This document shows, one piece after another, positions 270 to 56,070 of a DNA stretch of 62,402 nt. The notes under the pieces are model-generated. The model was not told the origin of the DNA, did no database searches, and saw only the letters and a list, made by a program, of their open reading frames with translations. Source of the stretch: Candidatus Doudnabacteria bacterium (GTDB lineage: Bacteria > Patescibacteriota > Doudnabacteria > UBA920); the NCBI GenBank assembly GCA_016218585.1, contig JACRDK010000013.1:1-62402 (forward strand), read 5' to 3'. Position numbers and translations under genes: made by a program. Every line of letters begins with the position of its first letter. The first letter of the stretch is position 1.

Positions 270-1505
270 ATGACAAAAATTGTTATTGTTGGAGCAGGGT
301 TTGGGGGATTGAGGGTTGCTTTAGATTTGGAAAAGAAATTTCATTCAGATAAGGACATACAAATTACGCTGGTTGATCAGCGCGATTATCATTTATTTAA
401 CCCAAATTTATTTGAGGTTGCGGCTTCAGCGGAAGAACTTACCAGTTTAACGCAGCTTAAAAAAAGCATTGCCTTGCCGCTAAAAGATATATTGCAAGGG
501 AAAAATATTAAGCTGGTGATTGGCGAGTTAAAACAAACAGATCCGCAAAAGAAACAGATTCTTGTTGGGCAAAAACAAATAGAGTTTGATTATTTAATTT
601 TATCATTGGGTTCAAAAAGCGATTTTTTAAATATCCCAGGCGCTGAAAAATTTGGGCTAGTGTTAAAACATTTGCCCGACGCGTTTAGAATAAGAAATCA
701 GGTTGAATTTGCAATTCAATCCCACAAGCTGGATGTAAATAAAAAGAATTTAAAAATTGTGGTTGCCGGCGGCGGCTATACCGGCTTAGAGTTGGCGGGG
801 GAGCTAAAAGGTCTGGTGGATTTTTTGGCTTGGGAAAACCAATACCCGCGGGAAAAAATTGAAATTGAAGTCATTGAGGCGTCGCCAAAATTAGTCTCCG
901 GTTTTGACAGCCGCTTAAGCCAGGATGCTTATGACCGCCTGCGCGACTTGGCAATTCATGTGCGTTTGTCCAGCAGAATAACCGAAGTTGAGCAGAATTT
1001 TATTTCTTTAATGTCCGGGGAGAAAATTGCTTACGATGTGCTGATTTGGACAGTAGGCATAAAACCCTGCCCGATTAATTGTCCTGTAGCGATGCCGCTG
1101 GACCATAAAGGCAGGTTATGCACTAACGAATATCTGCAATTGCCCGGGCATCAAAATATTTTTGCCCTTGGCGACATTGCTTGCGTTGTAGGCATTAACG
1201 GACAGCCGGTTCCGGCTAGCGCGCAGGATGCTATTGACCAGGGAAGGTATGTTGCGAAGGTCTTGCCTTTGGTAATGAGAAATAAATTACCCGAGGAAAA
1301 ATATTCAGCCAAAAGCCATGGTTTTATTGTTAACTTGGGCGGCAAATGGGCCGTGGTTGCTAACAAAAAATTCTACACGGCCGGTTATTTAGGCTATATA
1401 GTAGACCAGTTAGCTCATATTCGTTATTTCGCCTCGCTAATAGGCATTTTTAAAGCCATAAAGTATGTGTGGTTTGAAGCCGAACTGTATTCCAGGAATG
1501 ATTAA
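270..1505 (+). CDS. ndh: Type II NADH dehydrogenase / FAD-dependent pyridine nucleotide-disulfide oxidoreductase
   Basis: 411 aa with two dinucleotide-binding folds (IVIVGAGFGG, VVAGGGYTGLE) and a GD motif (FALGDIA). Confidence 0.85.
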   Translation: MTKIVIVGAGFGGLRVALDLEKKFHSDKDIQITLVDQRDYHLFNPNLFEVAASAEELTSLTQLKKSIALPLKDILQGKNIKLVIGELKQTDPQKKQILVGQKQIEFDYLILSLGSKSDFLNIPGAEKFGLVLKHLPDAFRIRNQVEFAIQSHKLDVNKKNLKIVVAGGGYTGLELAGELKGLVDFLAWENQYPREKIEIEVIEASPKLVSGFDSRLSQDAYDRLRDLAIHVRLSSRITEVEQNFISLMSGEKIAYDVLIWTVGIKPCPINCPVAMPLDHKGRLCTNEYLQLPGHQNIFALGDIACVVGINGQPVPASAQDAIDQGRYVAKVLPLVMRNKLPEEKYSAKSHGFIVNLGGKWAVVANKKFYTAGYLGYIVDQLAHIRYFASLIGIFKAIKYVWFEAELYSRND

Positions 1506-13795: not shown

Positions 13796-14239
13796 ATGAT
13801 TTCCTTATCGCAAATTGAACAAGATTTAGTGTCGGCCATGAAGGCTAAAGAGCAGGTGGCTGTGGAAGTTTTGCGCGGTTTAAAAACCAGAATTCAGAAT
13901 GAAAAAGTGGCTAAAACCAAAGCCGAACTTGATGAGGCGGAAATATTGGCTTTAGTAAGAAATGAAGTTAAAAGAAGAAAAGATTCCGCTGAAGCTTTTG
14001 TCTCGGGAGGCAGGCAAGAATTGGCTGACAAAGAGCTTATGGAAGCAAAAATTTTGGAAAAATACCTGCCGGCGGCAATGCCAGAAGAAGATATCGCTAA
14101 GATCGCGGAAGAAATTATTGCCGCAAACAGTTTTACTGCAGCCGATTTCGGCAAAGCAATGGGCCAATTAAAAGCTAAAATTGGCACTGCTGCCGAAGGC
14201 GCTATTATGGCAAAGGTTTTAAAAGAAAAACTAAAATAG
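13796..14239 (+). CDS. GatB/YqeY domain protein
   Basis: ATG at 13796. ISLSQIEQDLVSAMKAKE..LRGLK..I.NEKV is typical of YqeY. The rpsU-yqeY pairing is a common arrangement. Confidence 0.85.
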   Translation: MISLSQIEQDLVSAMKAKEQVAVEVLRGLKTRIQNEKVAKTKAELDEAEILALVRNEVKRRKDSAEAFVSGGRQELADKELMEAKILEKYLPAAMPEEDIAKIAEEIIAANSFTAADFGKAMGQLKAKIGTAAEGAIMAKVLKEKLK

Positions 14240-15801: not shown

Positions 15802-16698
15802 ATGAGAAACCTGATGTTTGTCGCCATTGTGTTGATGGTGATGTTGCCTGTTTCTAACTGCTCGGCTCAGGAAAATGGAGCCGAACAGTTTGTGATGTTT
15901 GTGGCAGAACAAAACGGCGGCCTGATGGCCATGATGCAGGACAACGGGTATAGCCCGTGGCTCTACAGCCAGTTGAGCCGCGAGCCTGGGGGAGAGTTAC
16001 TATCGTGCGAGGAACAAAGCTTCGAGATTCGAAGCATTAGTCCCGGACAAAAGCTTTTCATGCAGAAGGGCGCCAAGGTGGACCGTGGACGTCTGTCTCA
16101 CTGCCTCGCAGTGGAGAACAGGCTGTTTGGCAAAACCAAAGGAGCGGTTTTACCCGCAACCTTGGCATCGAATTCTCCTGCGCCTAGCGTGCAGCCGCCT
16201 GTGTCCGCATCACCTGGGCCTTGCGAGGAAACGAAGGCGAAGGTTGTGTTCCTTGAGGTGTCCATTGACAACATCAACCAACAGCTCAAGGAGGCTCTGG
16301 CCGAGAACGACAAGTTAAAAGCTGAGCTTGGTAAAGCCAAGCAGCGGCAGAGTCATGGTGCGGAATCTGCAACTGATGGCCAAACCTTTTTTGCGGGTTG
16401 TGTGATAGCTGCAACTTTTTTCGGTCTGGTTGCTGTTGCGATTTCTGGGGTAAGCCTTTGGCGCAAGCAGCATTTTAGAACGTCGTGGGCAGCCGGAATA
16501 GAATACTGGCTCTTCGGTCCAGTATGCAGGCATTCGACCAAAGTAAAAAAGTGGCTGAGGTTGAGTTTTCAAATCAGCCCAGATTTACCCAGCACGACGG
16601 GACGAACTTTACTAGAGACCCATTCGGTCGGCAGACTTGCGGCCGAATGTGGTGCCTCGGTTTCTCCGGAACAGCCAACTGAAAAGGTGGCTGTGTGA
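15802..16698 (+). CDS. Bitopic envelope protein A: signal peptide, ecto-domain, Pro-rich linker, coiled coil, TM, cytoplasmic tail
   Basis: 298 aa. Strong SD (aggagg, 8 nt before ATG) and signal peptide MRNLMFVAIVLMVMLPVSNCSA. TM FFAGCVIAATFFGLVAVAISGV. G+C-richer than its neighbours. I recognise no family. Confidence 0.7.
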   Translation: MRNLMFVAIVLMVMLPVSNCSAQENGAEQFVMFVAEQNGGLMAMMQDNGYSPWLYSQLSREPGGELLSCEEQSFEIRSISPGQKLFMQKGAKVDRGRLSHCLAVENRLFGKTKGAVLPATLASNSPAPSVQPPVSASPGPCEETKAKVVFLEVSIDNINQQLKEALAENDKLKAELGKAKQRQSHGAESATDGQTFFAGCVIAATFFGLVAVAISGVSLWRKQHFRTSWAAGIEYWLFGPVCRHSTKVKKWLRLSFQISPDLPSTTGRTLLETHSVGRLAAECGASVSPEQPTEKVAV

Positions 16699-16706
16699 AT
16701 AGTTTC

Positions 16707-16799
16707 AACATCTAGCAGACTTGATTTAATGCACTGCCTCGCGTGGCCCTGCATTTAACAGGGTCTTGCCGATGGCATCAGAACAATCTTGTCTCAACA
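16707..16799 (+). repeat. 93-nt 3-prime-flank repeat, copy 1
   Basis: Differs from 19769-19860 by 2 substitutions and 1 indel. It contains the hairpin ggccctg-catttaa-cagggtc. Confidence 0.9.
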
Positions 16800-16884
16800 T
16801 ATGCAATGGTGGTTCTTTTGGAATTTTTTCCTAGGGAGCCGCTTTTTGTTTATAAAAAAATAACCCACAAATAATTTGGGGTAT

Positions 16885-16929
16885 AAAAAAAGCGAGGCAG
16901 GAAAAGTCCGGTTGGGACGATTCCTGCCT
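16885..16929 (-). terminator. Rho-independent terminator after the PEP-CTERM gene
   Basis: The minus strand reads aggcaggaa..ttcctgcct followed by cgcttttttt. Confidence 0.7.
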
Positions 16930-16951
16930 GCTGTTGCTGTAGTCCTGTGGA

Positions 16952-18349
16952 CTACTGAAGTTGATTCTGCCGGCGTTTGCGGGCAAGCGCGAGGGCACAG
17001 AGCCCGGCGCCGAGCATCGCGAGTGTGGCCGGCTCGGGGACTTCGGATTTCGCGGTGTCGAAATTGGCTCTTGCCGATACCGTATCGGATGTCCAATTGC
17101 TTACCGTAAACTTGATCGTCGTGAGCGCGCTAGCTAGTTGCATAGGCGCAAAAGTGTTGTCAGCGGCCGCGTTGCAGCTGGTGCTTCCGCCTGCCGGTCC
17201 GGTACAACCGAGTCCGGAAATATTCGCTCCCAAATCTACTGCACCCGGATTGCCAACGGTAGTCATGCTGCCCTTTGTTACTGAGGGTACGTGAGAACCG
17301 AAGGAACTCCCGGTTACCGCCATTGAGGCGTGAAGCCCGGTGATGTCCTTCGGGTCAAAGTACAGGAGGATGGTCAAGATGTTGTCGACCGGAGCGCCGC
17401 TTGCGTTGAAGCTGGCAATGGAGACGGACACGTTGCTGAAATCTGCTCCACCGAATATCCCGGTAATCGTAACGAGTCCTCCAACGAGGGTGTCGTTGAT
17501 TATCCAATTCCCCGGGGTTCCAGTAACGTTGACATTCTGAGCCGGCCCGCCGTTCTGAGAGAACTGCACGAGAGGGTTCAGAGGTGTCGCTGTCGCCGGG
17601 ACGGCTATGGCCGTAATGGCGAGGACAATCATGAGAGCACAGGCGCATTGCTTGATGGAAAGCTTCGGCATTTTGTGCCGGTTCTTCCAGAGCAACAGGC
17701 CCAGAAGGCCGAGGCCCATCAGCGCGTAGCTGTTGGGTTCAGGGACAGGGGACCCACCGAGCTGAAAGTCGGTGAACGTTGCCTGCTGCCCTCTGTGATC
17801 AGCGTTGACGCTGCGCAAGCGCAGCAGCAACTGTTCGAACTCGCCGAATGAACCCACGTTGGTCTTGAGGAATGTTCCTTGGGTAAGCACTCCATCAAAC
17901 ACGTGGTCGACGCTGCCGTCGGCGTAGAGCTTGGTTGAGACTGTGTGGGGTGTTCCCAAAGCTCGTGGCGTGAGGTCGAAGTATACAACGTTCTCAACGG
18001 CTGGGCCGTTGTCGTAACGTTCGTAGCTAATGGCCGAACAGCACGCAAATGCGCTGCCGTCCTGGATCCGCGGGTTGTGGACGTTCGAGATGTTCTGCTG
18101 GAACATATCGATGTTCGCACCCGGGTTGTCCAGGTAAGAGAAGGAAGCCATGGTAAACATGGTGTTGAGCACCAGGTCCACCTCGGTGTTGCTGTTCTGG
18201 GTCAGGGTGATCGACCCATCTAGATTTACGACGGCGATTCCGTCGCCGACCACATCCCAGCTTTGCCCTTTCCAGGCAATCGTGGTCGCACTTGCCACCA
18301 TACAGATGGCGAATGCCAAAATCAAAAAAACGCTCGCGCGTTTTGTCAT
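16952..18349 (-). CDS. Tandem PEP-CTERM pre-protein fusion (two signal-peptide plus PEP-CTERM modules in one ORF)
   Basis: 465 aa with SD aggagg. Module 1 is aa 1-226 and ends VPEPNSYALMGLGLLGLLLWKNRHK. Module 2 starts at Met227 (17671) with its own signal peptide and ends VPEPATLAMLGAGLCALALARKRRQ. No stop codon separates them. Confidence 0.8.
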   Translation of the reverse strand: MTKRASVFLILAFAICMVASATTIAWKGQSWDVVGDGIAVVNLDGSITLTQNSNTEVDLVLNTMFTMASFSYLDNPGANIDMFQQNISNVHNPRIQDGSAFACCSAISYERYDNGPAVENVVYFDLTPRALGTPHTVSTKLYADGSVDHVFDGVLTQGTFLKTNVGSFGEFEQLLLRLRSVNADHRGQQATFTDFQLGGSPVPEPNSYALMGLGLLGLLLWKNRHKMPKLSIKQCACALMIVLAITAIAVPATATPLNPLVQFSQNGGPAQNVNVTGTPGNWIINDTLVGGLVTITGIFGGADFSNVSVSIASFNASGAPVDNILTILLYFDPKDITGLHASMAVTGSSFGSHVPSVTKGSMTTVGNPGAVDLGANISGLGCTGPAGGSTSCNAAADNTFAPMQLASALTTIKFTVSNWTSDTVSARANFDTAKSEVPEPATLAMLGAGLCALALARKRRQNQLQ

Positions 18350-18456
18350 GCGTATTCCTCCTGAGGAATTTACTAATAGCCCCTCTAAGGGTTCTTAGCG
18401 TTTCATAAGTGTAATGAAATAGTCGGGAAAAGTCAAGCCCTTTTATAGGCTTAGTC

Positions 18457-18485
18457 TTGCAATTGTTTTATATTTATGTTATAGT
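18457..18485 (+). promoter_or_regulatory. Sigma-70-like promoter (TTGCAA-17-TATAGT) for island gene B
   Basis: Exact 17-nt spacer; about 170-nt AT-rich leader before 18658. Confidence 0.55.
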
Positions 18486-18657
18486 AATGTCCTGAAGTTA
18501 AATAAATTTTCTTGTGTTGTTTTAAGCCCAAAATTTTTTTTGGACAAAAACAAGACCAGAAAAACCACTTCTTCTTTGAAGCGGCCAGTTTTGGTTTACT
18601 ATATTTTGTACAATGCGCTACTGGGAAATTTAGCGCAAAGAAAAACTAGTTAGGGGG

Positions 18658-19743
18658 ATGCACAAGATGTTTAAGATGTCACGCCTTGCGGTCGTGTTGA
18701 CCGTATTGGCGAGTTACGCATTTGCGGACGACCGTGTCCGCATTGCTACGGTCGAACTTGGGCCAACACAAGCCTTGGAAAACAATCACCGACACTGGGA
18801 TGAGTTGGGATCGATTGAACACCAAGACGGCAGTCTGTGGAAGCCCTGTGAATACTCCACTGTATCGGACAAGGAGTTTTATGTCCCATTACAGCCTCAG
18901 CGCAACAGAGTTAAGGCTTTGGCGTTGATCGCCGAGTCCAGAAACTGCACTGCGAAACCGATTTCGCCCGTTGCTTTGGCTTCTACGCCACCGGCCAAGC
19001 CGCTCGTTCAAACACAGCCCGCAAAGACCGAGGTTCAGGCCAAGGTTCAGCCGGCTCCGATCCAGGCCAAGTATCAACCGTCCGTGTTGACGCTTACGCC
19101 TCGGGCGAGAGAGACTGCGCTGGAAAAAGAGCTTAGCGCTTACCGCGCTCGGTTGAATTCCGCCGACGACGCTCGGGTTCAGATGATCAGGGCGATGAAG
19201 GATGATCTGGAACAAAACTACATCCGCAAGGATGGAGTTGTTCCAAAAGAACAACACGAACGCGACCTGGCAAAAGCCAGACTCATCGGCACCTGGTCGA
19301 CAGCATCCGTTGGTTTGATCTGCGCGATTTTGGGTTTTTTCGGCAACGAAAGGCTTCGTAACCGGAACATAAGAAAGCGCAGTCGAAAAGCTGGGCATCA
19401 CAATCAAGAAACCAGTCAAGAAGATGGTGTTCTGTTTTTTCTGAAAGAACCTCAAACTGACAATTTCGCTGAGCCGGTGTTCGTTGCGAGGTACGCCAAA
19501 AGCCATCACGACATTCCAGAGCTACCCGATCTGAAATATCGTGGCAATGGTTTTCCTATCACGCCTTCGGACGGACTAACGGCCGTCCAGATGCAACATT
19601 TTGCGTTGCATCGCAAGGTCAGGGCTTGGATGGAAAACAACCCAAGCGTCAACGCTGAAGTCGTTGCCATCAGCGACCAGAACAGTTCCGTCAGAACTCG
19701 TAGTTCCGAAAGGCGCACTGACAAACGCACCGCAATTGCCTAA
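18658..19743 (+). CDS. Bitopic envelope protein B (same architecture as protein A)
   Basis: 361 aa: signal peptide, Pro/Gln-rich linker (PAKPLVQTQPAKTEVQAKVQPAP), coiled coil, TM (WSTASVGLICAILGFF) and a 130-aa tail. The start may instead be ATG 18667 or 18676. Confidence 0.7.
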   Translation: MHKMFKMSRLAVVLTVLASYAFADDRVRIATVELGPTQALENNHRHWDELGSIEHQDGSLWKPCEYSTVSDKEFYVPLQPQRNRVKALALIAESRNCTAKPISPVALASTPPAKPLVQTQPAKTEVQAKVQPAPIQAKYQPSVLTLTPRARETALEKELSAYRARLNSADDARVQMIRAMKDDLEQNYIRKDGVVPKEQHERDLAKARLIGTWSTASVGLICAILGFFGNERLRNRNIRKRSRKAGHHNQETSQEDGVLFFLKEPQTDNFAEPVFVARYAKSHHDIPELPDLKYRGNGFPITPSDGLTAVQMQHFALHRKVRAWMENNPSVNAEVVAISDQNSSVRTRSSERRTDKRTAIA

Positions 19744-25257: not shown

Positions 25258-25404
25258 ATTAGTGACGTAAGGCGAGCAGTCTTGCTTGCAAGGCAAGCGA
25301 GCTTAAACTGCGAAAAGAAGTTTGCTCCTTGGGGGCCCCGAGATATCTTTATTTATCCACTGGTGAATTTTAAATTTTGTGATACAATTATTTTTACAAC
25401 TCAT

Positions 25405-25560
25405 CTGCGATTAGTTGCCCCGAGAACGGGGTTTGGTTTAGGAAAGTCGGGTTTAATTCCCGCGCTGTGCCGCAACTGTAAAGCCTAAAAAATTTAGGAC
25501 AAGCCAGGCACTACCAGCTAATTGTACGACGGTCTCTTTCCCCGAGCAGGGAACAGGGAT
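25405..25560 (+). promoter_or_regulatory. Cobalamin (B12) riboswitch
   Basis: B12-box core aggaaagtcgggtttaattcccgcgctgtgccgcaactgtaa, then aagccaggcac. This fits the GGGAA..GGTG.AA.TCC..CCCGC.ACTGTAA..GCCA pattern. It lies directly upstream of 25593. Confidence 0.75.
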
Positions 25561-42573: not shown

Positions 42574-44238
42574 ATGTCCAAGATAATAAAATATGGCTTT
42601 GAAGCCAAGCAGGCCATTAAGGCCGGCGTAGACAAATCCGCCAATGCGGTAAGGGTAACATTGGGGCCTACCGGCAAAGCGGTGATTTTAGATAAAGGTT
42701 TTGGCAGCCCGACTATTACCGATGACGGCGTTACCGTTGCCAAAGACATTGAATTGGAAGATAAGTTTGAAAATATCGGCGCTTCTTTAATTTCCGAAGT
42801 AGCCAACAAAACCAACGAAGCAGCCGGAGACGGCACTACCACCGCTACGGTTTTGGCGCAGACAATGATTCAGGAAGCTTTTGAAGCAGCAGCCTTGGCT
42901 AGCACTCAGGCTAATGAAATTAAAAAAGGCATGGATGCCGCGGTTCGCTTTGTGGTTAATGAATTGAATAAAGTAAAAAAAGACGTAAAGAATAAAGAAG
43001 AGGTGCAGCAAGTGGCGACCATTGCTTCTTTGGACGAAGAAGTTGGCAAGCTGATTGCCGAGGCGATGGAAGAAGTTGGCCATGACGGCGTAATTACCGT
43101 AGAAGAAGGCCAGACCACCGGATTGGAAAAAGAAGTTGTTAAGGGTATGCGCTTTGACAAGGGTTTTGTAAATCCGTATATGGTAACCAATGCCGAGAGA
43201 ATGGAAGCTGTTTGGGAAGACCCGTATATTTTAATTACCGACAAGAAAGTTTCTAGTGTTCAGGACATTTTGCCGCTGCTAGAAAAAGTGGCGCAAAGCG
43301 GCAAAAAAGATTTGGTAATTATTGCCGACGAGGTGGAAGGCGAAGCCTTAACTACTTTTGTGTTGAATAAATTGCGCGGCACCTTTAATGTGCTGGCCGT
43401 TAAGGCTCCGGGTTTTGGCGATCGCCGCAAAGAAATGTTGCAAGATATTGCCATTTTAACCGGCGGAACCGTAATTACCGAAGATATGGGTTTGAAATTA
43501 GACAAGACTGAAATTGCAGACCTGGGACGCGCTCATAAAGTTATTTCTACCAAAGAACACACCACGATTGTTGACGGCAAAGGCGAAAAGAAAAATATTG
43601 AAGATCGCGTAAATCAAATTAAAGCGGAAATAAAAAATTCCACTTCCGATTTTGATAAAGAAAAGTTGCAGGAAAGAATGGCCAGGTTGTCCGGCGGAAT
43701 TGGCGTAATTAAAGTTGGAGCTTTTACCGAAACGGAAATGAAAGCCAAGAAATTTAAAATTGAAGATGCGCTTAACGCCACCAAGGCGGCTGTAGAAGAG
43801 GGGATTGTAGCCGGAGGCGGCGCGGCCTTAACCAAGATTGCTCCGCTACTTGAAGCGGAAATGGCCAAGGCCACCGGCGCGCAAAAAACCGGTTATAAAA
43901 TTGTGCGCAAATCTTTGGAAGCTCCGTTGAGGCAAATTGCCGCCAACTCTGGCGTGGAGCCGACCGGCGTTATTACCTACATCCAAACCGGCGGCCCGCA
44001 TGCGGGATACGATTTTACCAAATACGACGAAGCCGATTGGGGTAAAGGCAAAGTGGAAGATATGATGAAGGCCGGAATTGTTGATCCGGTAAAAGTTACC
44101 CGCTTGGCTTTGGAGAACGCCGTGTCTATTGCTTCTACTTTAGTAACTACCGAAGCCATTGTTGTAGACAAGCCCGAACCGAAGTCCGCTGAGCCTGCTC
44201 CTGGAGGAATGGGCGGCGGTATGGGCGGAATGTACTAA
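42574..44238 (+). CDS. groEL: Chaperonin GroEL
   Basis: 554 aa with [12 protein letters not shown] and a C-terminal [11 protein letters not shown] tail. Confidence 0.98.
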
Positions 44239-44245
44239 ATCGCAG

Positions 44246-44267
44246 ACCTGCCTGCCGGCAGGCAGGT
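44246..44267. repeat. ACCTGCCTGCCGGCAGGCAGGT perfect 22-bp palindrome
   Basis: Perfect dyad 8 nt after the groEL stop. Confidence 0.9.
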
Positions 44268-44295
44268 GCGCTGATAAAAACAGATAGCGCAGATC

Positions 44296-44328
44296 AAACC
44301 CCGTCCCGATAACTCGGGACGGGGGTTT
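44296..44328 (+). terminator. Rho-independent terminator after groEL
   Basis: aaaccccgtcccga-taac-tcgggacgggggttt. Confidence 0.8.
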
Positions 44329-44344
44329 GTGATATAATGCAATT

Positions 44345-44665
44345 ATGAAAAAAGAGCCATCAGACATTACCGGTTTTAATCCTGAAAAAATAAGCAGAGA
44401 AACCAGTTTGTCAGCAATTAAACAGGAATTATTAAGTTCTGCCGATGCGCTGCATGATGAAATTGGCAGGGCAGAGGATTTGAAATTTTTCAGCCCTGAA
44501 GTGATTGCCTATTTTCAGGTGAAAATTGATCAGTATTGCATGACTTTCGGTGTATCCGCCGATGATTTTTGGCAGGAAATTAATGCTTGGATAGATAGCT
44601 CGAATCATCAATCACAGGCTGTGTTAAGAAGGCTTGAACAAGCAATACGAATTCCCTCACACTAA
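44345..44665 (+). CDS. Hypothetical protein
   Basis: 106-aa ORF preceded by an extended -10 (tgtgatataat); no motif recognised. Confidence 0.5.
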   Translation: MKKEPSDITGFNPEKISRETSLSAIKQELLSSADALHDEIGRAEDLKFFSPEVIAYFQVKIDQYCMTFGVSADDFWQEINAWIDSSNHQSQAVLRRLEQAIRIPSH

Positions 44666-44721
44666 AATTAAATAATTTTTGGCTTAAATAAAGGTATTTT
44701 AAATAAAATCGCCCTTTGGTC

Positions 44722-44750
44722 TTGACAAAAGGGCGGTTTTGGCGTATACT
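44722..44750 (+). promoter_or_regulatory. Sigma-70-like promoter (TTGACA-17-TATACT) embedded in a terminator hairpin
   Basis: Hexamers with a 17-nt spacer. The -35 sits in the loop of cgcccttt..aaagggcg (44710-44736). Confidence 0.5.
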
Positions 44751-45322
44751 ATATGGTCATGCTCAAAAGGCATGCTTTAACAACTGAATATATTGTCTCT
44801 ATGTTTTTACAGGAAAGCATACGGATAATTTGTCCTCACGCTAATCTTCATTGGTATTGCACAGTTTAGAATCTGACACATATTTATAAGAGATTTCGTT
44901 GCTTACACATTACTTGGTGGAGATTCGTGTGAGGATAAAGTTCATAGCATACATATTATCGGAGTAATCCGCGTCTATCTGTGTGTCTGTGATTTTTTAC
45001 ATGCTCCTGATTTCGGGAATACCGGATTGGGGGCGCGAAAAAGCCGTATACTGCATACAAGAATAATTTTTACATTGATTCTCCTGTATTGAGTTTACGG
45101 TTTTTTCATTTCACAAATATTTTTTTAGAGATTGAAATAGTGCTATAATTCTTTTTAGCATTGTGGGCCTTAGGAGGGCAAAACTTTTTTTCCCGAGCTT
45201 ATCGGGATAGGCCTCTGTCCTTAAGACCCGCAGTATTAGAAAGAATTTTTTTGTGCCAACGTTTTTGCCAAAAAGCTTTTTTGGTGGAGATGTTTGCAAA
45301 AAAGGCTCAAGGAGGGCTAAGA

Positions 45323-45439
45323 GATGAACGGTTGGTTTTTTAAAGGAGCAAGAGAAGCTGTGGTCTACAGCTTACTGGCACTGATGGCCTGCATGGCAGG
45401 GTATGCCAGCGGGACTGAAGCTCAGGCGTGGTGGCATAA
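45323..45439 (+). CDS. Small ORF 1 (38 aa), lipobox-like hydrophobic peptide
   Basis: SD aggagg 8 nt upstream. Sequence MNGWFFKGAREAVVYSLLALMACMAGYASGTEASGVVA. Not in the ORF track (under 60 aa). Confidence 0.45.
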
Positions 45440-45481
45440 CAAAAGCATGACCACCAAGCACATCACCCCGGAGAGCACGCG

Positions 45482-45631
45482 ATGAAGGAACTCTGGGATG
45501 ATATTGTCTGGAGCTGGGAGGGCAAGAGCCCTGCCAGTAAAATGATCTTCAAGATATTTTTCGGCTTTATCGCTATGACGATAATCTCAATCGTCTCATC
45601 GTTGATAGCGAAACACGCCAACCAACTGTAG
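45482..45631 (+). CDS. Small ORF 2 (49 aa), single-TM peptide
   Basis: MKELWDDIVWSWEGKSPASKMIFKIFFGFIAMTIISIVSSLIAKHANQL, followed by the hairpin agggcggc..gccgccct. Confidence 0.45.
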   Translation: MKELWDDIVWSWEGKSPASKMIFKIFFGFIAMTIISIVSSLIAKHANQL

Positions 45632-45836
45632 TCGGAAAGGGCGGCACCACAAAACGCCGCCCTGTCCAAATTCTAATTTAACATTTACTGCTTTGCGCCT
45701 AAAATATTTTGGGCTTAAAGTGGTGGATGTAAATCCACAATTCCTGAAAGCCTCCCCCGAGACATGAAGGAATGTTTGCCGGCTAGAGTACAAGCCGGCG
45801 AATAACAACATCAAACCCTTTTAAAGGAGGGGTAAG

Positions 45837-46019
45837 ATGGTTGAATCAATTAAAGCGCCTAACGGCGCCGAAGGGCACTTGGTTGCCCCAAACCATTTTG
45901 TTGAAAGCATGGCCCCGCCTGAGCGGGGTCGGTGGTCCGCGGGACAGATTTTCGTCGCCGGCTTGATGGCGGTCTTGTTTTTGGGCACTTTGGTGCTCAT
46001 GTATATCAAACGCGGATAG
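45837..46019 (+). CDS. Small ORF 3 (60 aa), C-terminal TM plus basic tail
   Basis: Strong SD aaaggagg 7 nt before the ATG. The sequence ends ...GQIFVAGLMAVLFLGTLVLMYIKRG. Confidence 0.6.
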   Translation: MVESIKAPNGAEGHLVAPNHFVESMAPPERGRWSAGQIFVAGLMAVLFLGTLVLMYIKRG

Positions 46020-46158
46020 CACTCGGGCGCAAGGTCGTCGCAGCAACTGCCGACCTTTCGCCCTCCCAAATTTGCCAATCTGTTTTGTATTATGAGTTTA
46101 TAATTCTTAATTCATTATTCATAATACTACATTCGCAGGTTGTCAGGTTTGGGGCACA

Positions 46159-46278
46159 ATGGAGAAATTTATTATCTCTCTCACGGTCACCATTTTGGTG
46201 GCCGTCGGCATTCACTTGTCCGAGTCCTACCGGCGGTCCTTTGATCGTTCGTTGGAGAAGGAGAAAAAGAATGAGTGA
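46159..46278 (+). CDS. Small ORF 4 (39 aa), N-terminal TM peptide
   Basis: MEKFIISLTVTILVAVGIHLSESYRRSFDRSLEKEKKNE. It overlaps ORF 5 by 8 nt, so translational coupling is plausible. Confidence 0.45.
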   Translation: MEKFIISLTVTILVAVGIHLSESYRRSFDRSLEKEKKNE

Positions 46279-46513
46279 GTTCATTTGTATCGCCTTCGCC
46301 ATGGTGCTGGTTTCAATTTTAATCATGGCGCTGATTGATCTGGAGTTTTTGGTTGAGGTGATTAGGGACAGCCCCATCACCAAAACCATTACTACCGTAG
46401 TGATGGGGCTGATAGCGGTTGCTGCCGTTTGCATTTCATACTGGTGGCATAGCTTCAGCTGGCCAATGGAAACCTGGGCGAGAATGATGTCGCCCAGAAG
46501 AAAAGGAGGATAA
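46271..46513 (+). CDS. Small ORF 5 (80 aa), two-TM protein
   Basis: ATG 46271 is preceded by gagaaggag. Sequence MSEFICIAFAMVLVSILIMALI...VVMGLIAVAAVCISYWW. It is the only hydrophobic, plausible part of track ORF 45932-46513. Confidence 0.55.
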   Translation: MSEFICIAFAMVLVSILIMALIDLEFLVEVIRDSPITKTITTVVMGLIAVAAVCISYWWHSFSWPMETWARMMSPRRKGG

Positions 46514-46834
46514 AAATAGTACAGGATTTTCTGTATTATCTCAACAGCCTACCTGCGTGGCTTAGGCTTTCGTTGGTAGTGGGCCTCATGCCGGGCCTTT
46601 GTCTTGTCGCTGTTGTAATTTTGGCATCCCGCCACGGGCGTCACTAGCATCCCAATCGGATGCGCGACGCCCACACACCTTAGTTTATAAATATTTTGTA
46701 AATTAAGGTGCGAGGACAAAATTTTCTTTTGCGGCCCGTTTAGCGGTTAAGCGAACAAAAAATTATTGAAAAATACTTTTTTATTCGTTTTCCTGTAACT
46801 GCTAAGCGGACTGAAGAAGGAAATTTTTTTTTGC

Positions 46835-46881
46835 AAACAAAAACCGCGCAGGTCTACCAATGGTAGATTGTTCCCACGCGG
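46835..46881 (-). terminator. Rho-independent terminator after the CPBP pair
   Basis: The minus strand reads ccgcg..tctaccattggtaga..cgcgg followed by tttttgttt. Confidence 0.7.
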
Positions 46882-46885
46882 CGGG

Positions 46886-47560
46886 CTACGAAGAGCCCAA
46901 AATAATGTTAATAAAACCAATGCCTGCTCGAATGACCCATCTGGGCCAAAACGTAGCGATGGCTGCTCCGATTAGGCCATGTGCCAGGCCAAGAGCATAG
47001 AGGTTTCTTTGTCTGTTGAAGATGTAAGCGCTCATCCAACCTGCGGCCAGCGTAATGAACATCAACGCCGGGTTGGGCAGGTGAGAGGCGCAAAATATTA
47101 ACGCAACTACTCTTTCCGCTTTTCTTGGACAGACTTTTTGCAGTCGGACAAAGACGTAAGACTGCATTAAGAGCTGCTGAAGGAATGCGCTAAAAATGTA
47201 GCTGTTTTTGTTGGCGGGAAAAAACTCCGATCCTGGTGTGTCGTTCGCATTGCCTGTAAATACTCCCGTTAACCAGATGAGCGAAATAATAATCAGGACT
47301 GGTTCGCTCATCCATAGGCTTCCTTTGGAGTTTTTGAAACGTAAGCCCATCTCTGTGAGAGAGGTTTTGTCCCAAAGCGTAGTCAATATCAACCACGCTG
47401 CCCCGAGGAGAATTATTCTTCCGCGAGAATTGCGGTGAGTCCATAGACCTATCTGAACCAAAACACTTGTCACCACAATTTCGGTCCATGTCCACCAAAC
47501 CGGAGGGCTGTTGTTGGGCCAGGGGATGTGGAGTTCCAGGTGTTCAATTTTGATTGTCAT
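46886..47560 (-). CDS. CPBP/Abi-like membrane protein with degenerate catalytic motif 1
   Basis: Start at ATG 47560 (SD ggag, 11 nt after the upstream stop). FLQQLLMQ replaces EExxxR. FCASHLPN and LAHGLIG resemble the FxxxH and HxxxN motifs. Confidence 0.6.
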   Translation of the reverse strand: MTIKIEHLELHIPWPNNSPPVWWTWTEIVVTSVLVQIGLWTHRNSRGRIILLGAAWLILTTLWDKTSLTEMGLRFKNSKGSLWMSEPVLIIISLIWLTGVFTGNANDTPGSEFFPANKNSYIFSAFLQQLLMQSYVFVRLQKVCPRKAERVVALIFCASHLPNPALMFITLAAGWMSAYIFNRQRNLYALGLAHGLIGAAIATFWPRWVIRAGIGFINIILGSS

Positions 47561-47571
47561 TCTCTTCTCCG

Positions 47572-48525
47572 TTACAGGAAGAACGTGTGCCAAATGCTGT
47601 CCACAAGCGCGTGGAGAAGCACCGCGTAGAGAATGCTTCTGGAGTGCCGGAAAACTTGACCGTAGGCCAGACCGGCTATGGTCGCAAAGCCCGCATAAGT
47701 CCAGTTCCAATCCCAGATTGCGAGTCCGCGTGCCCCGTTGTTGAGGTGGGCTAAGCCAAACAAGATACTGGCGAAAAACCAGGCAAGGTTTGGGCGGTTG
47801 AGGGTTTTTTCCAAAAAGTTTTGGATTATACCCCTAAACATAAACTCTTCCGATATACCAATCGTGATGTAAATCTTGATTAGATACCAGAGGAATTTCC
47901 AAGTTGCCAGGTGTTTCCAAATTACTGACGGCAGGCTGGATTGTGCCAGCTCTTGGCGCCAGAAGTCGCGGGGAACGAGAAAGCCGGAGGCGAAACCTAA
48001 AGGCAGCAGGAGAATCAGCAGCACTGACAATCCGGCAAACACTTTGGCGAAATCTTTCCAGCTAAATTTCAGGACCATCTTTGTCCCCTCGATGCGCCTG
48101 AGGCACACCCAGAAGGCAAGTCCGATTAATACGCCGGAGATGGCTGTAAGCGGCCAGTCCAAAGCATCCTTGATGCGGTGTTCCCGGCGGCCAATAAGAT
48201 GCAAGTCAAAGGGGAGCCAAAGCATTGCAATTGCGACCCAGTCCAGCCAGGTAATCCTTTCTCCCTGGTTTTTTATTTGCCAAAGCACAAGGCTCGGCAC
48301 GCCTAGGTACGCGAATATTTGCAATGAGATTGACCAGTCGATGCCGCCGCTGAATTTGCTGTAGAACAGAAATCCTGCCCCGAGAACAGCGGTGAGACAC
48401 AGGGCAATGTAAGGCTGCTTGTCGCAAGCCTTGCGCCCCGCTGCTTGGCCGCGCCTTGTTAGTAGTGTAATAAGGGTCCCGTAGTAAGCGAGGACCATCA
48501 CAATCAACAACCATGTTGGATTCAT
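47572..48525 (-). CDS. CPBP family intramembrane metalloprotease (CAAX protease / Abi)
   Basis: 317 aa, polytopic, SD gaaggagg. Motifs are SEEFMFRG (EExxxR), FGLAHL (FxxxH) and LLHALVD (HxxxD/N). Confidence 0.85.
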   Translation of the reverse strand: MNPTWLLIVMVLAYYGTLITLLTRRGQAAGRKACDKQPYIALCLTAVLGAGFLFYSKFSGGIDWSISLQIFAYLGVPSLVLWQIKNQGERITWLDWVAIAMLWLPFDLHLIGRREHRIKDALDWPLTAISGVLIGLAFWVCLRRIEGTKMVLKFSWKDFAKVFAGLSVLLILLLPLGFASGFLVPRDFWRQELAQSSLPSVIWKHLATWKFLWYLIKIYITIGISEEFMFRGIIQNFLEKTLNRPNLAWFFASILFGLAHLNNGARGLAIWDWNWTYAGFATIAGLAYGQVFRHSRSILYAVLLHALVDSIWHTFFL

Positions 48526-48555
48526 CTTCTCATCCTCCTTCGTGGATGATTGCTT

Positions 48556-48584
48556 ATTTTAACACCGGGCAAATTAACAGTCAA
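48556..48584 (-). promoter_or_regulatory. Promoter for the CPBP operon (TTGACT-17-TAAAAT, TG-extended)
   Basis: Read on the minus strand; divergent from the rpmF promoter. Confidence 0.55.
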
Positions 48585-48595
48585 AGAACAGGTAT

Positions 48596-48624
48596 TTGAC
48601 GAAAAAGCCTTTATTAGCTATAAT
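48596..48624 (+). promoter_or_regulatory. rpmF promoter (TTGACG-17-TATAAT)
   Basis: Near-consensus hexamers 60 nt upstream of rpmF. Confidence 0.65.
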
Positions 48625-48684
48625 AAACAAAGTTTTTGATGCAATACATCTTAACTCCTAAATCTTAAATCCTAAATTACTACT

Positions 48685-48855
48685 ATGGGCGTTCCCAAAA
48701 AGCACAAAACTAGAAGCGGCCGTGATCAGCGCCGCAGCCACCATGCCTTAAAGAAAACCTCTTTTGCAACTTGCAAAAACTGCGGTGCAGCAACTATGCC
48801 ACACTTGCCGTGCAAAAACTGCGGATACTACAAAGGCAGAAAAGTAACCAAATAA
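48685..48855 (+). CDS. rpmF: 50S ribosomal protein L32
   Basis: 56 aa, hand translated: MGVPKKHKTRSGRDQRRSHHALKK..CKNCG..CKNCGYYKGRKV. Missing from the ORF track (under 60 aa). Confidence 0.9.
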   Translation: MGVPKKHKTRSGRDQRRSHHALKKTSFATCKNCGAATMPHLPCKNCGYYKGRKVTK

Positions 48856-48972
48856 ACTTGAATCATGAATTTTGAATCAGGAATTATGGTCTAAAACTCT
48901 CTTAACCTGAATTTCAGGCAGGGAGTTTTTGTTTCTCTTAATTCTTAATTCCGCATACTTAATTCTTATTTT

Positions 48973-49473
48973 ATGGCCAATCGACATCTTTCCAGAACTA
49001 TCGCAATGCAGTCTTTGTTTGAATGGGATTTCAACGAGCGCAAAGATGATTTAGAAGAAATTTTAAAAAACCATATTCAGGAATTTGGCGGCGAGGTGGA
49101 AGAAACTGCTTTTATATATGAACTGGCCAGGGGAGTGCAAACTAATCTTGATGCTATTGATCAAATAATTACCAAACACGCGCCGGAATGGCCAATGGAA
49201 CAGATTCCGCCGGTAGACAGAAATGTTTTGCGGTTGGGCGTTTATGAGCTTATGTTTTTAAAGCAAGTTCCGCCCAAGGTTGCTATAAATGAGGCGGTGG
49301 AATTAGGAAAGACCTTTGGCGGAGAGTCTTCGGGAAAATTTGTTAACGGAGTTTTAGGAACTCTGTATAAGGAGCTGGATCCAGACGACGCTGAAGAGAT
49401 TCAAAATACCAGCGACCCGCAAGAAGGCCAGGAAAAAACAGAAGAAGAAAATTTAAAACCGGTTAAGGAATAG
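48973..49473 (+). CDS. nusB: Transcription antitermination factor NusB
   Basis: 166 aa with [13 protein letters not shown].., [22 protein letters not shown] and an acidic C-terminal extension. Confidence 0.9.
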
Positions 49474-49506
49474 CATTCCTCAAACCGGTTTTTTATTTAA
49501 ATAAAA

Positions 49507-49542
49507 CTGGTCAAAATTGGACGATCGTCCAATTTTGACCAG
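49507..49542. repeat. 36-bp perfect palindrome P1
   Basis: ctggtcaaaattggacga|tcgtccaattttgaccag. Confidence 0.95.
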
Positions 49543-54618: not shown

Positions 54619-54637
54619 AAGTTTAATTGAATAAGTT

Positions 54638-54737
54638 TTTATCCAGAGAGCAGTTAGGGTTCTAGCCCGATGATCTGCCAGCAACCCTGAGGAAACTCGA
54701 ATGGGTGCTAAATCTAGCCCCACGCGGGAAAGATAAT
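54638..54737 (+). promoter_or_regulatory. SAM-I (S-box) riboswitch aptamer
   Basis: ttatccagagagcagttagggttctagcccgatgatctgccagcaaccc...ggtgctaaatctagcc...gaaagataa matches the conserved S-box core. It lies upstream of metK. Confidence 0.85.
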
Positions 54738-54745
54738 TTACATCT

Positions 54746-54769
54746 CATCCGCTTTGGCGGATTTTTTTG
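54746..54769 (+). terminator. Riboswitch expression-platform terminator
   Basis: atccgc-tttg-gcggat followed by T7. Confidence 0.8.
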
Positions 54770-54867
54770 TGCCATCCTTACCCCGAGCATTTTTATTTAG
54801 GGGTAACACAGGACGATTAGGGCATTATTTAAATAATATTAATAAAAAATTATTAAGCAGAGAATTT

Positions 54868-56070
54868 ATGAAATCATCAATTCAAAAAAAACTGTTTACT
54901 TCCGAATCGGTGACCGAAGGTCATCCGGACAAAATGGCAGACCAGATTAGCGATGGCGTCTTGGATGCTATTTTAAAAGAAGATCCAAAGGGTCGCGTGG
55001 CCGTGGAAACCTTGCTGACTAACGGCGTTTGCGTCGTGGCCGGTGAAGTTACTACAAAAACTTATGTAGATATACAGAAAGTGGCCCGCGCCATTATTAA
55101 AGACATTGGTTATACCAACGCTGAATATGGTTTCCATTGGGAGACCTCCGGCGTTATGGTTGCCATAAAAGAGCAATCAAGTGATATTGCTATGGGCGTT
55201 GATGCATTTGAAAAGAACAAGAAAGGGGAAATTGTTAAAGAAGATTTGGAAAAAATTGGCGCCGGCGACCAGGGCTTAATGTTTGGTTTTGCCACAGACG
55301 AAACTAAAGAATTAATGCCTTTGCCAATTGTTTTGGCACATAAATTGACTCATAGATTGGCAGAGGTCAGAAAGAAAAACATTATTAAAGGTTTACGCCC
55401 TGACGGTAAAAGCCAGGTAACCGTTGAATACAATGGCGACAAGCCAAAGCGAGTGCATACGGTATTAATTGCCGCGCAGCACGATGCCGAAATTGACAGT
55501 GAAAAATTGAAAGCGGAAATTATTAAGCATGTAATAAAAAAAGTTATTCCAGGACAGTTATTGGATAAAAATACCAGAATTTTAGTTAACTCTACCGGCA
55601 GGTTTGTTATTGGTGGACCGCAAGGGGACACAGGGCTCACGGGTAGAAAAATTATTGTTGATACTTACGGCGGTTACGCCAGGCACGGCGGCGGGTGCTT
55701 TAGCGGTAAAGATCCGTCTAAGGTGGATCGTAGCGGCAGCTATATGGCTCGTTATGTTGCTAAAAATTTAGTGGCTGCCGGATTGGCTAAAAAATTAGAA
55801 GTGCAAATCGCTTATGCTATTGGCGTGCCGGAGCCTTTGTCAGTACGCGTTGATTCCTTTGGTACGGGAAGATACGGCGACGATAAAATTGCGGAAATTG
55901 TCTCCTTGGTTTTTGACTTAAGACCAGGAATGATAATTAAGAATTTAGGTTTACGCAAGCCAATTTATCGCGCTACTGCCGCTTATGGACATTTTGGCAG
56001 AAACGACCTTAAGCTTCCTTGGGAAAAGACCGATAAAGTAAAGGATATAAAAAAAGTTTTAAAGAAATAG
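54868..56070 (+). CDS. metK: S-adenosylmethionine synthetase
   Basis: ATG 54868: [29 protein letters not shown].., [22 protein letters not shown]. The track N-extension (54754) covers the terminator. Confidence 0.96.

Follow-up and report, generated by a model that had tools for sequence, protein, structure and literature searches.

A CPBP protease gene and its QQ-variant paralogue beside a variable set of small membrane-protein genes in a Candidatus Doudnabacteria genome

The window considered here is a stretch of 62,402 nt from the small, low-G+C genome of a Candidatus Doudnabacteria bacterium (Candidate Phyla Radiation (CPR)/Patescibacteria). Its subject is the region between groES-groEL and rpmF-nusB, where two genes of the CPBP family of intramembrane proteases, on the minus strand, converge with five small open reading frames (ORFs) for membrane proteins on the plus strand. 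The groEL gene is placed at 42574-44238 and its product is 88-90% identical to Candidatus Doudnabacteria proteins, and rpmF-nusB is placed at 48685-49473. From groEL onwards the order is a soluble ORF of 106 aa, about 650 nt with no good ORF, the five small ORFs and the two minus-strand genes. The two sets have two transcription directions and no co-transcription. The features of the region are listed below; the small ORFs are named by their length in residues, SD denotes a Shine-Dalgarno sequence, TM a transmembrane segment and GC3 the G+C fraction at third codon positions.

44345-44665: soluble ORF, 106 aa, between groEL and the small ORFs
44722-44750, plus: promoter-like TTGACA-17-TATACT upstream of element A (consensus scan)
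45002-45108, plus: core of element A, the 3' domain of a candidate small RNA (sRNA), with a 13-bp hairpin, a 21-bp terminator hairpin and a U-run
45132-45266, plus: B', a weak hairpin resembling element B, between element A and s53 (covariance model R2, 20.3 bits, E about 0.007 by a rough estimate; tentative)
45324-45485, plus: s53, 53 aa, putative small lipoprotein with lipobox LALMA/C (Cys23); AAGGAGG 8 nt upstream, GC3 0.63
45482-45631, plus: s49, 49 aa, single-pass membrane protein; GGAG 8 nt upstream, GC3 0.66
45678-45705: promoter-like site upstream of s60 (consensus scan)
45837-46019, plus: s60, 60 aa, C-terminal TM helix; AAGGAGG 6 nt upstream, GC3 0.64, codon score 0.20
46097-46125: promoter-like site upstream of s39 (consensus scan)
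46159-46278, plus: s39, 39 aa, N-terminal TM helix and charged tail; weak SD AGGT, GC3 0.70
46271-46513, plus: s80, 80 aa, two-pass membrane protein; AAGGAG 7 nt upstream, GC3 0.60, codon score 0.20
46722-46826, plus: element B, an imperfect hairpin RNA of about 105 nt directly past the last small ORF; in the window T9 follows
46836-46885, minus: hairpin and U-run directly past the CPBP2 stop, likely terminator of the CPBP operon (read from the sequence)
46886-47560, minus: CPBP2, 224 aa, QQ-variant CPBP paralogue, beginning 11 nt past the CPBP1 stop
47572-48525, minus: CPBP1, 317 aa, CPBP/Rce1-like glutamic intramembrane endopeptidase (Pfam and motifs)
48556-48584, minus: promoter-like site for the CPBP operon, TTGACT-17-TAAAAT with TG (consensus scan only)
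48596-48624, plus: rpmF promoter-like site, back to back with that of the CPBP operon (consensus scan only)

The original prediction described an intact CPBP protease with the motifs EEFMFRG, FGLAH and HALVD and, beside it, a paralogue with QQxxxQ in place of EExxxR. The Pfam domain and the motifs bear out both. CPBP1 matches PF02517 with 66.5 bits (cut-off 22.4; E 2.7e-18), and the three motifs (E226-E227-xxx-R231, F256-xxx-H260 and H305-xxx-D309) are invariant in nine orthologues; the orthologues in relatives are about 48% identical to it. In the AlphaFold2 (AF2) model, with a predicted local distance difference test score (pLDDT) of 85.4, the motifs are placed in the predicted helices 226-242, 245-258 and 298-315. 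By its motifs CPBP1 is a catalytically intact CPBP protease with a predicted activity, and its ATG is preceded at 8 nt by AAGGAGG. CPBP1 resembles the CPBP/Rce1-like (PF02517) family in its domain, above the Pfam cut-off, and in EExxxR, FxxxH and HxxxD lying in predicted TM helices. It differs from the family in a long N-terminal multi-helix extension with an invariant loop motif of its own and in having no curated subfamily, as it scores below the cut-off of every NCBIfam CPBP/myxosortase model. The loop motif comprises residues 103-125 (W103-x-PFDLH-xxx-RR-x5-DALD-x-P125), lies in the extension outside the Pfam domain, is invariant in 9/9 orthologues and is modelled by AF2 as a loop of low confidence. 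It could be a functional site specific to this subfamily. A Foldseek search of the PDB with the models of CPBP1 and CPBP2 gave nothing below E 0.3, and profile searches of PDB sequences with the CPBP proteins gave chance matches only, so that a likeness to the Rce1 or SpdC structures is not demonstrated.

CPBP2 starts at 47560 and not at 47563, and the protein is identical to P0103. It matches PF02517 with 36 bits (cut-off 22.4; E 9e-9). Its motif 1 reads QQLLMQ (Q128-Q129-xxx-Q133), its motif 2 retains H160 (HLPNP) and its motif 3 is HGLIG (H194-xxx-G198); in a profile-profile alignment with hhalign the QQ of CPBP2 stands opposite the EE of CPBP1. Of the features by which an active protease is recognised, CPBP2 lacks the catalytic glutamates and the arginine of motif 1 as well as the Asn/Asp of motif 3. 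Its AF2 model has a pLDDT of 87.2, and the NCBIfam CPBP/myxosortase models, TIGR03008 included, do not match it. Since a pairwise BLASTP of CPBP1 against CPBP2 is not significant, the two are not recent duplicates. The QQ pair, H160, P162, N163 and H194 are invariant or nearly so in 17 homologues of CPBP2, down to 27% identity, and the same depth of conservation holds for R139, an arginine ten residues past QQ, and for GLAH. Because residues are conserved down to such identity, CPBP2 is under selection and is not a decaying copy. It is a member of a QQ branch within the CPBP family that is old and has a wide distribution; the whole branch has lost the two catalytic glutamates, the motif 1 arginine and the Asp/Asn of motif 3, and has retained the two histidines and HLPNP.

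The two genes are tightly coupled in the relatives, whose loci are referred to by L numbers. The gap from CPBP1 to CPBP2 is 1-11 nt in the window and in L001, L002, L040, L042 and L048, and 125 nt as called in L041 (seven lineages); in L046, a copy of the L002 locus, CPBP2 is called 92 nt downstream, from a later start. Past the CPBP2 stop, an equivalent GC-rich hairpin with a T-run is found in L046, L040, L041 and L042. Outside the clade, in the loci L049 (from soil) and L050 (a 319-kb contig also carrying genes for TonB-dependent receptors), a CPBP2 homologue of the QQ type converges with a CPBP1-like gene of the EE type, which is 37% identical over the catalytic half. L049 also carries, at 1175-1375 (plus), an ORF for a 66-aa two-pass membrane protein that ends 1 nt before the QQ-type CPBP gene; no other small membrane ORF was seen to share an operon with a CPBP2 homologue.

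The tight gene coupling, the adjacency across phyla and a precedent from Staphylococcus aureus suggest that CPBP1 and CPBP2 form a membrane protease-pseudoprotease complex. CPBP1 would be its catalytic subunit and CPBP2 a non-catalytic partner acting as substrate receptor, regulator or scaffold. The precedent is SpdC, an Abi/CPBP protein of S. aureus that scaffolds SagB without needing its putative catalytic residues (bioRxiv 10.1101/2020.05.21.109470). CPBP2 is comparable to SpdC in having the CPBP fold signature without the catalytic glutamates, the role of SpdC being non-catalytic scaffolding. Two differences set the present case apart from SpdC-SagB: the presumed partner is an active-type CPBP protease encoded immediately upstream, and the QQ variant is a conserved family that stands next to EE-type genes in distant bacteria. 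A limited literature search found no description of an EE/QQ pair of CPBP proteins.

The small ORFs on the opposite strand were originally given as five unannotated hydrophobic peptides of 38, 49, 60, 39 and 80 aa. The last four lengths stand, and the first ORF is 53 aa long when read from its SD-preceded ATG. The best 19-residue Kyte-Doolittle means are 1.58 for s53, 2.39 for s49, 2.44 for s60, 1.92 for s39 and 3.09 for s80, in agreement with the claimed hydrophobicity; in a control set of 213 out-of-frame ORFs, 3.8% reach a mean of at least 2.0 and 0.5% do so with an SD of at least 5 nt. The N-terminus of s53 is signal-peptide-like and conforms to the PS51257-type lipobox rule. The strong SDs ascribed to several of the ORFs are found before s53, s60 and s80. 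The reported 8-nt overlap of the last two ORFs, s39 and s80, is confirmed, and the stop of s53 overlaps the start of s49 by 4 nt (ATGA). The third is the codon position highest in G+C in all five frames (0.60-0.72), for which the chance is 1 in 243, and promoter-like sites lie ahead of all three transcription units. The ORFs are not all unannotated as had been stated: s60 and s80 are in NCBI nr (s60 also in Logan) and s53 and s49 are called on the Logan contig L045, so that independent pipelines found four of the five and s39 alone is absent.

The small ORFs are thus probably real genes, presumed to be translated. They would form three short plus-strand transcription units for one putative lipoprotein, three single-pass proteins and one two-pass protein, all lineage-specific. 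A 193-aa ORF over part of the same DNA (45932-46513) is rejected as an artefact, as the original prediction had it: it starts at a GTG that no SD precedes, the 112 codons of its N-terminal part have a codon-test score of -0.24, and the protein collection lacks it, as it does s39, but contains s60 and s80 from the same stretch. An annotation of the region should omit the 193-aa ORF and may lack one of 39 aa. No homologue of s80 was found among 1.84 billion representative proteins, and the five small ORFs have no meaningful match in Pfam, NCBIfam, PHROGs or PADLOC. Searches of the relatives' loci with the small ORFs by tblastn gave no match (best E 0.07), and when 21 small ORFs were compared all against all with phmmer, every score stayed at or below 8 bits.

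Seven related lineages have the same arrangement of groEL, small ORFs, CPBP pair and rpmF/nusB. At the loci of the CPBP1 orthologues the order is nusB, CPBP1, CPBP2 and convergent small ORFs, followed by groEL-groES where the contig is long enough. In every CPBP-bearing relative, SD-preceded small membrane ORFs converge with CPBP2, none of them recognisably similar across lineages or to those of the window. A scan of genome contigs found no close relative, and a metagenome scan added one locus only.

The most informative relative is L051, a Doudnabacteria contig of 1.21 Mb (GCA_964474825.1) whose GroEL, L32 and NusB are 90.5%, 86% and 73% identical to those of the window. From groEL to rpmF it contains no CPBP gene by tblastn at E<=1. 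Its slot holds SD-preceded small membrane ORFs of 58 and 44 aa and a 161-aa ORF, and keeps the RNA elements A and B. The 161-aa ORF is membrane-anchored, has no family match and stands in place of the CPBP pair (L051 12700-14700), and some 1.2 kb of the slot is free of called genes. L049 and L050, on the other hand, have the active/QQ pair without a small-ORF array like that of the window. A co-occurrence of the peptides with CPBP is therefore not supported. Because L051 has the ORFs without CPBP, and L049 and L050 the pair without the array, the stable association is that of EE-CPBP with QQ-CPBP and not that of CPBP with peptides. The conserved backbone is groEL, a small soluble ORF, element A, variable small membrane ORFs, element B, the CPBP pair or something else, rpmF and nusB, and gene turnover is concentrated in the slot from elements A/B to rpmF.

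The core of element A (45002-45108) is the best-conserved non-coding stretch: its DNA is 85-88% identical to that of L001 and L051, the CPBP genes reaching only 63-73%. It occurs with or without the CPBP pair and is found in L001 (11372-11494, minus), L042 (3040-3163, minus), L046 (5222-5348, minus) and L051 (12362-12484, plus). Over five lineages 98% of the cells are paired and nine pairs show compensatory changes, which 0/500 shuffles reach; the covariation is significant. The whole candidate sRNA would span 44722-45108 (plus), with a variable 5' part followed by the highly conserved 3' domain, which contains the invariant UUCUCCUGUAU. A role of element A as an anti-SD sRNA, considered for its two CUCCU motifs, was rejected for the first of them, which is paired in hairpin 1 and reads CUGCU with a compensating change in L051.

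Element B folds on the plus strand with -35.6 kcal/mol and 37 pairs, of which 22 have compensatory changes over six lineages; the other strand gives -18.8 kcal/mol. A covariance model trained without L051 recovers the L051 copy (13950-14087, plus) with 57 bits. Equivalents are also found in L001, L041, L046 and L048, the element following immediately on the last small ORF in all six lineages, and an unpaired UCCUGU is conserved. Element B would be a terminator-like or 3' untranslated region element. It was rejected as an antisense RNA, as it folds on the sense strand, and as an attC-like site, as by eye its ends are unlike the R boxes of attC and an integrase is lacking. A weak match similar to B' lies at the equivalent position of L042. 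Against Rfam 15 neither A nor B gave a match at the gathering score, the matches being at chance level (E 0.08-3). Both elements, being without an Rfam family, could join the catalogue of CPR non-coding RNAs.

The region had been seen as a G+C-richer island. It is compositionally distinct at GC3, its bulk G+C being only mildly raised (0.46-0.49 versus about 0.42), and it is not a recent insertion. GC3 is 0.54-0.72 in all seven genes (five small ORFs and two CPBP genes) versus 0.436 +/- 0.067 in 40 other genes of the window. A codon effect of membrane proteins is ruled out as the source, given that proteins with 11, 5 and 4 TM helices elsewhere in the window have a GC3 of 0.38-0.46. Both strands of the 62-kb window together contain only six copies of AAGGAGG, of which four fall inside the 3.3-kb region and three exactly before s53, s60 and CPBP1, and 32/40 long genes of the window have no SD of at least 4 nt ahead of the longest-ORF start. 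The relatives present a similar picture: CPBP1 has an AAGGAGG SD in all the lineages with an orthologue, and the CPBP genes a GC3 of 0.52-0.73, compared with 0.35-0.55 and no SD in most loci for nusB, groEL, metK and tkt.

An assembly chimera, named beforehand as a possible refutation, is excluded: an independent Logan contig (run SRR12113407; 5977 bp) matches window 43560-49536 with 100% identity and crosses both borders of the region. No direct repeats were found at these borders and hence no sign of site-specific insertion, and PADLOC, PHROGs and phage DNA searches gave no match. The region is therefore neither a chimera nor a recent foreign island, as its compositional contrast is old and common to the relatives.

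At the scale of the window two gene classes can be distinguished. The stretches 15802-19743 and 45324-48525 combine a GC3 of 0.54-0.72 with AGGAGG/AAGGAGG SDs (which in the first precede the ORFs at 15802 and 18349, in the second s53, s60, s80 and CPBP1), and most other genes have a GC3 of about 0.44 and no SD ahead of the longest-ORF start. Every relative examined shows this contrast, L051 with its CPBP-less slot among them. Two riboswitches reach the Rfam gathering score, a cobalamin riboswitch at 25395-25536 (plus) and a SAM riboswitch at 54636-54739 (plus), the latter directly upstream of a 438-aa ORF (54754-56070).

Taken together, the preferred reading is that of two separable things sharing a variable slot between groES-groEL and rpmF-nusB, the CPBP operon on the minus strand and the small-ORF cassette on the plus strand. 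The coding content of the cassette turns over completely between relatives while elements A and B stay. A conserved protease-pseudoprotease pair would thus lie beside a hypervariable small-membrane-protein cassette, in a shared neighbourhood with no demonstrated functional link. About even confidence is placed in this reading. Several points weigh against it. The interaction of CPBP1 with CPBP2 is a proposal, and the EE/QQ pairing outside the clade was inspected in two loci only. CPBP2 retains both histidines, so residual or altered chemistry may be conceivable. Among the small ORFs s39 is the weakest of the five, with no good SD and no call. In addition, all seven genes share the unusual high GC3 and strong SDs; this could reflect co-regulation or a common origin, and a closer link between peptides and CPBP than assumed here, although the CPBP-less slot of L051 has the same signature.

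Such a closer link was the original proposal, in which the peptides and the CPBP proteins form one functional unit. The convergent transcription and the lack of detectable peptide homologues do not agree with it, and a shared peptide-toxin or sorting function is not supported because the two parts come and go independently in relatives. In one version of the link, the CPBP1/CPBP2 complex has the small membrane proteins as its substrates or modulators, in the manner of MroQ acting on AgrD or of small inhibitors of intramembrane proteases. CPBP proteases do act on membrane-tethered peptides and sorting tails, as MroQ on AgrD and MrtX on MYXO-CTERM (PMC9388083, PMC11980579), and the adjacency in seven lineages and the common GC3 and SD signature agree with such a role. 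The small proteins, however, have no conserved cleavage motif or sequence family, and they and the CPBP genes are present or absent independently in L051, L049 and L050. Maturation or regulation of this kind is rather unlikely.

An alternative link is that of peptide toxin and immunity, in which the small proteins are membrane-active bacteriocin-like peptides and the CPBP/Abi proteins protect the producer. CAAX/Abi proteins are found in bacteriocin loci and linked to self-immunity (PMC9298176). As in lactic acid bacteria, where bacteriocin loci carry Abi/CAAX immunity genes, variable genes for small cationic or hydrophobic peptides adjoin conserved CPBP genes, here in seven lineages and with a fast turnover of the peptide genes. 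The bacteriocin-type features are nevertheless missing: none of the five peptides has a double-glycine leader, no ABC/C39 exporter, regulator or quorum-sensing gene lies nearby, and a transporter is likewise absent from the stretch between groEL and nusB. The peptide genes are convergent and not co-transcribed with the CPBP genes, PADLOC and PHROGs give no match, and the parts are independent in the relatives, L051 having small ORFs without CPBP and L049 and L050 the EE/QQ pair without such peptide arrays. Toxin and immunity are accordingly judged unlikely; this idea and that of maturation draw on adjacency only.

The small ORFs might also be non-functional, that is, chance or decaying ORFs in a fast-evolving spacer. 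No homologues of them were found, no sequence conservation exists with L051 in spite of a GroEL that is 90% identical, and s39 is without a good SD or a call. On the other hand, three perfect or near-perfect SDs stand at the right spacing before ATGs in a window where 32/40 long genes show none, GC3 periodicity is seen in 5/5 frames, and TM segments with an SD occur in only 0.5% of control ORFs. The overlaps of 4 and 8 nt are coupled, and the same kind of ORF is present at this place in all relatives. Non-functional ORFs are therefore quite unlikely.

A more speculative proposal, held to be quite improbable as well, is that element A, the hypervariable membrane-peptide genes and element B make up a dedicated, rapidly diversifying Doudnabacteria cassette for surface or host-interaction peptides of an episymbiont, or for toxins, which the EE/QQ heteromer would process or neutralise where adjacent. 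If true, cassette and heteromer would represent a peptide/protease system of a new kind, in which RNA elements define the borders of the cassette.

A type I toxin-antitoxin-like system would consist of small hydrophobic toxins held by elements A/B or by antisense transcripts, the CPBP genes being unrelated neighbours. Small toxic membrane proteins repressed by sRNAs have a precedent (PMC7667032). The small TM proteins have charged tails and strong SDs, and the cluster is flanked by conserved structured RNAs, in the relative without CPBP genes too. Elements A and B, however, both fold on the sense strand; B folds best on the strand of the ORFs and hence is no antisense RNA. Element A has its hairpins paired internally, L051 does not keep the first CUCCU of A, and the antisense promoters are consensus matches only. 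Such a system is very doubtful.

The remaining alternative concerns a PEP-CTERM gene far from the region, to which the original prediction had extended the link.

16952-18349, minus: PEP-CTERM ORF, 465 aa; TIGR02595 49.8 bits, cut-off 16

In the 465-aa ORF two complete units stand in tandem and in frame, each with its own signal peptide and VPEP-TM-basic tail (...GSPVPEPNSYALMGLGLLGLLLWKNRHK / MPKLSIKQCACALMIVLAITAIAVPATA...EVPEPATLAMLGAGLCALALARKRRQNQLQ). It is unusual to meet PEP-CTERM in a CPR bacterium where exosortase models match none of the window membrane proteins scanned, which were seven hydrophobic or polytopic ones. CPBP1 shares with the myxosortases MrtX/MrtJ/MrtS and with TIGR03008 the protease superfamily and a weak, sub-threshold similarity in the hidden Markov models (HMMs); it differs in that all models are far under their cut-offs and in that the neighbouring small proteins have no cognate C-terminal sorting motif. 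Its scores are 24.0 bits for Mrt_core NF040914 (cut-off 100), 30.5 for MrtJ (75), 20.4 for MrtS (130) and 17.8 for MrtP (250), and the HMM subfamily check against TIGR03008 gave 14.7 bits against 81.05. The CPBP pair is not in an exosortase/exopolysaccharide (EPS) locus, its flanks being groEL and rpmF-nusB. Non-canonical sorting, in which CPBP1 removes the PEP-CTERM-like C-terminal anchors encoded at 16952-18349 without an exosortase, has in its favour a real PEP-CTERM domain, the lack of an exosortase-model match in the window scan, the known use of CPBP enzymes as sorting proteases (PMC11980579) and the high GC3 and strong SDs common to both regions, but it is extremely improbable. The link is not supported, as CPBP1 is far under the TIGR03008 cut-off, the gene lies 27 kb from the CPBP region and no PEP-CTERM match was found in the small ORFs.

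Bacterial CPBP proteases are very widespread and few of them have known roles. The cassette shows a complete turnover of small membrane-protein genes between close CPR relatives, with its two border RNAs fixed. The conserved pairing of an active CPBP with a QQ pseudoprotease, reaching from CPR to a distant bacterium (the contig with TonB-dependent receptor genes), would add a protease-pseudoprotease architecture to the CPBP family.

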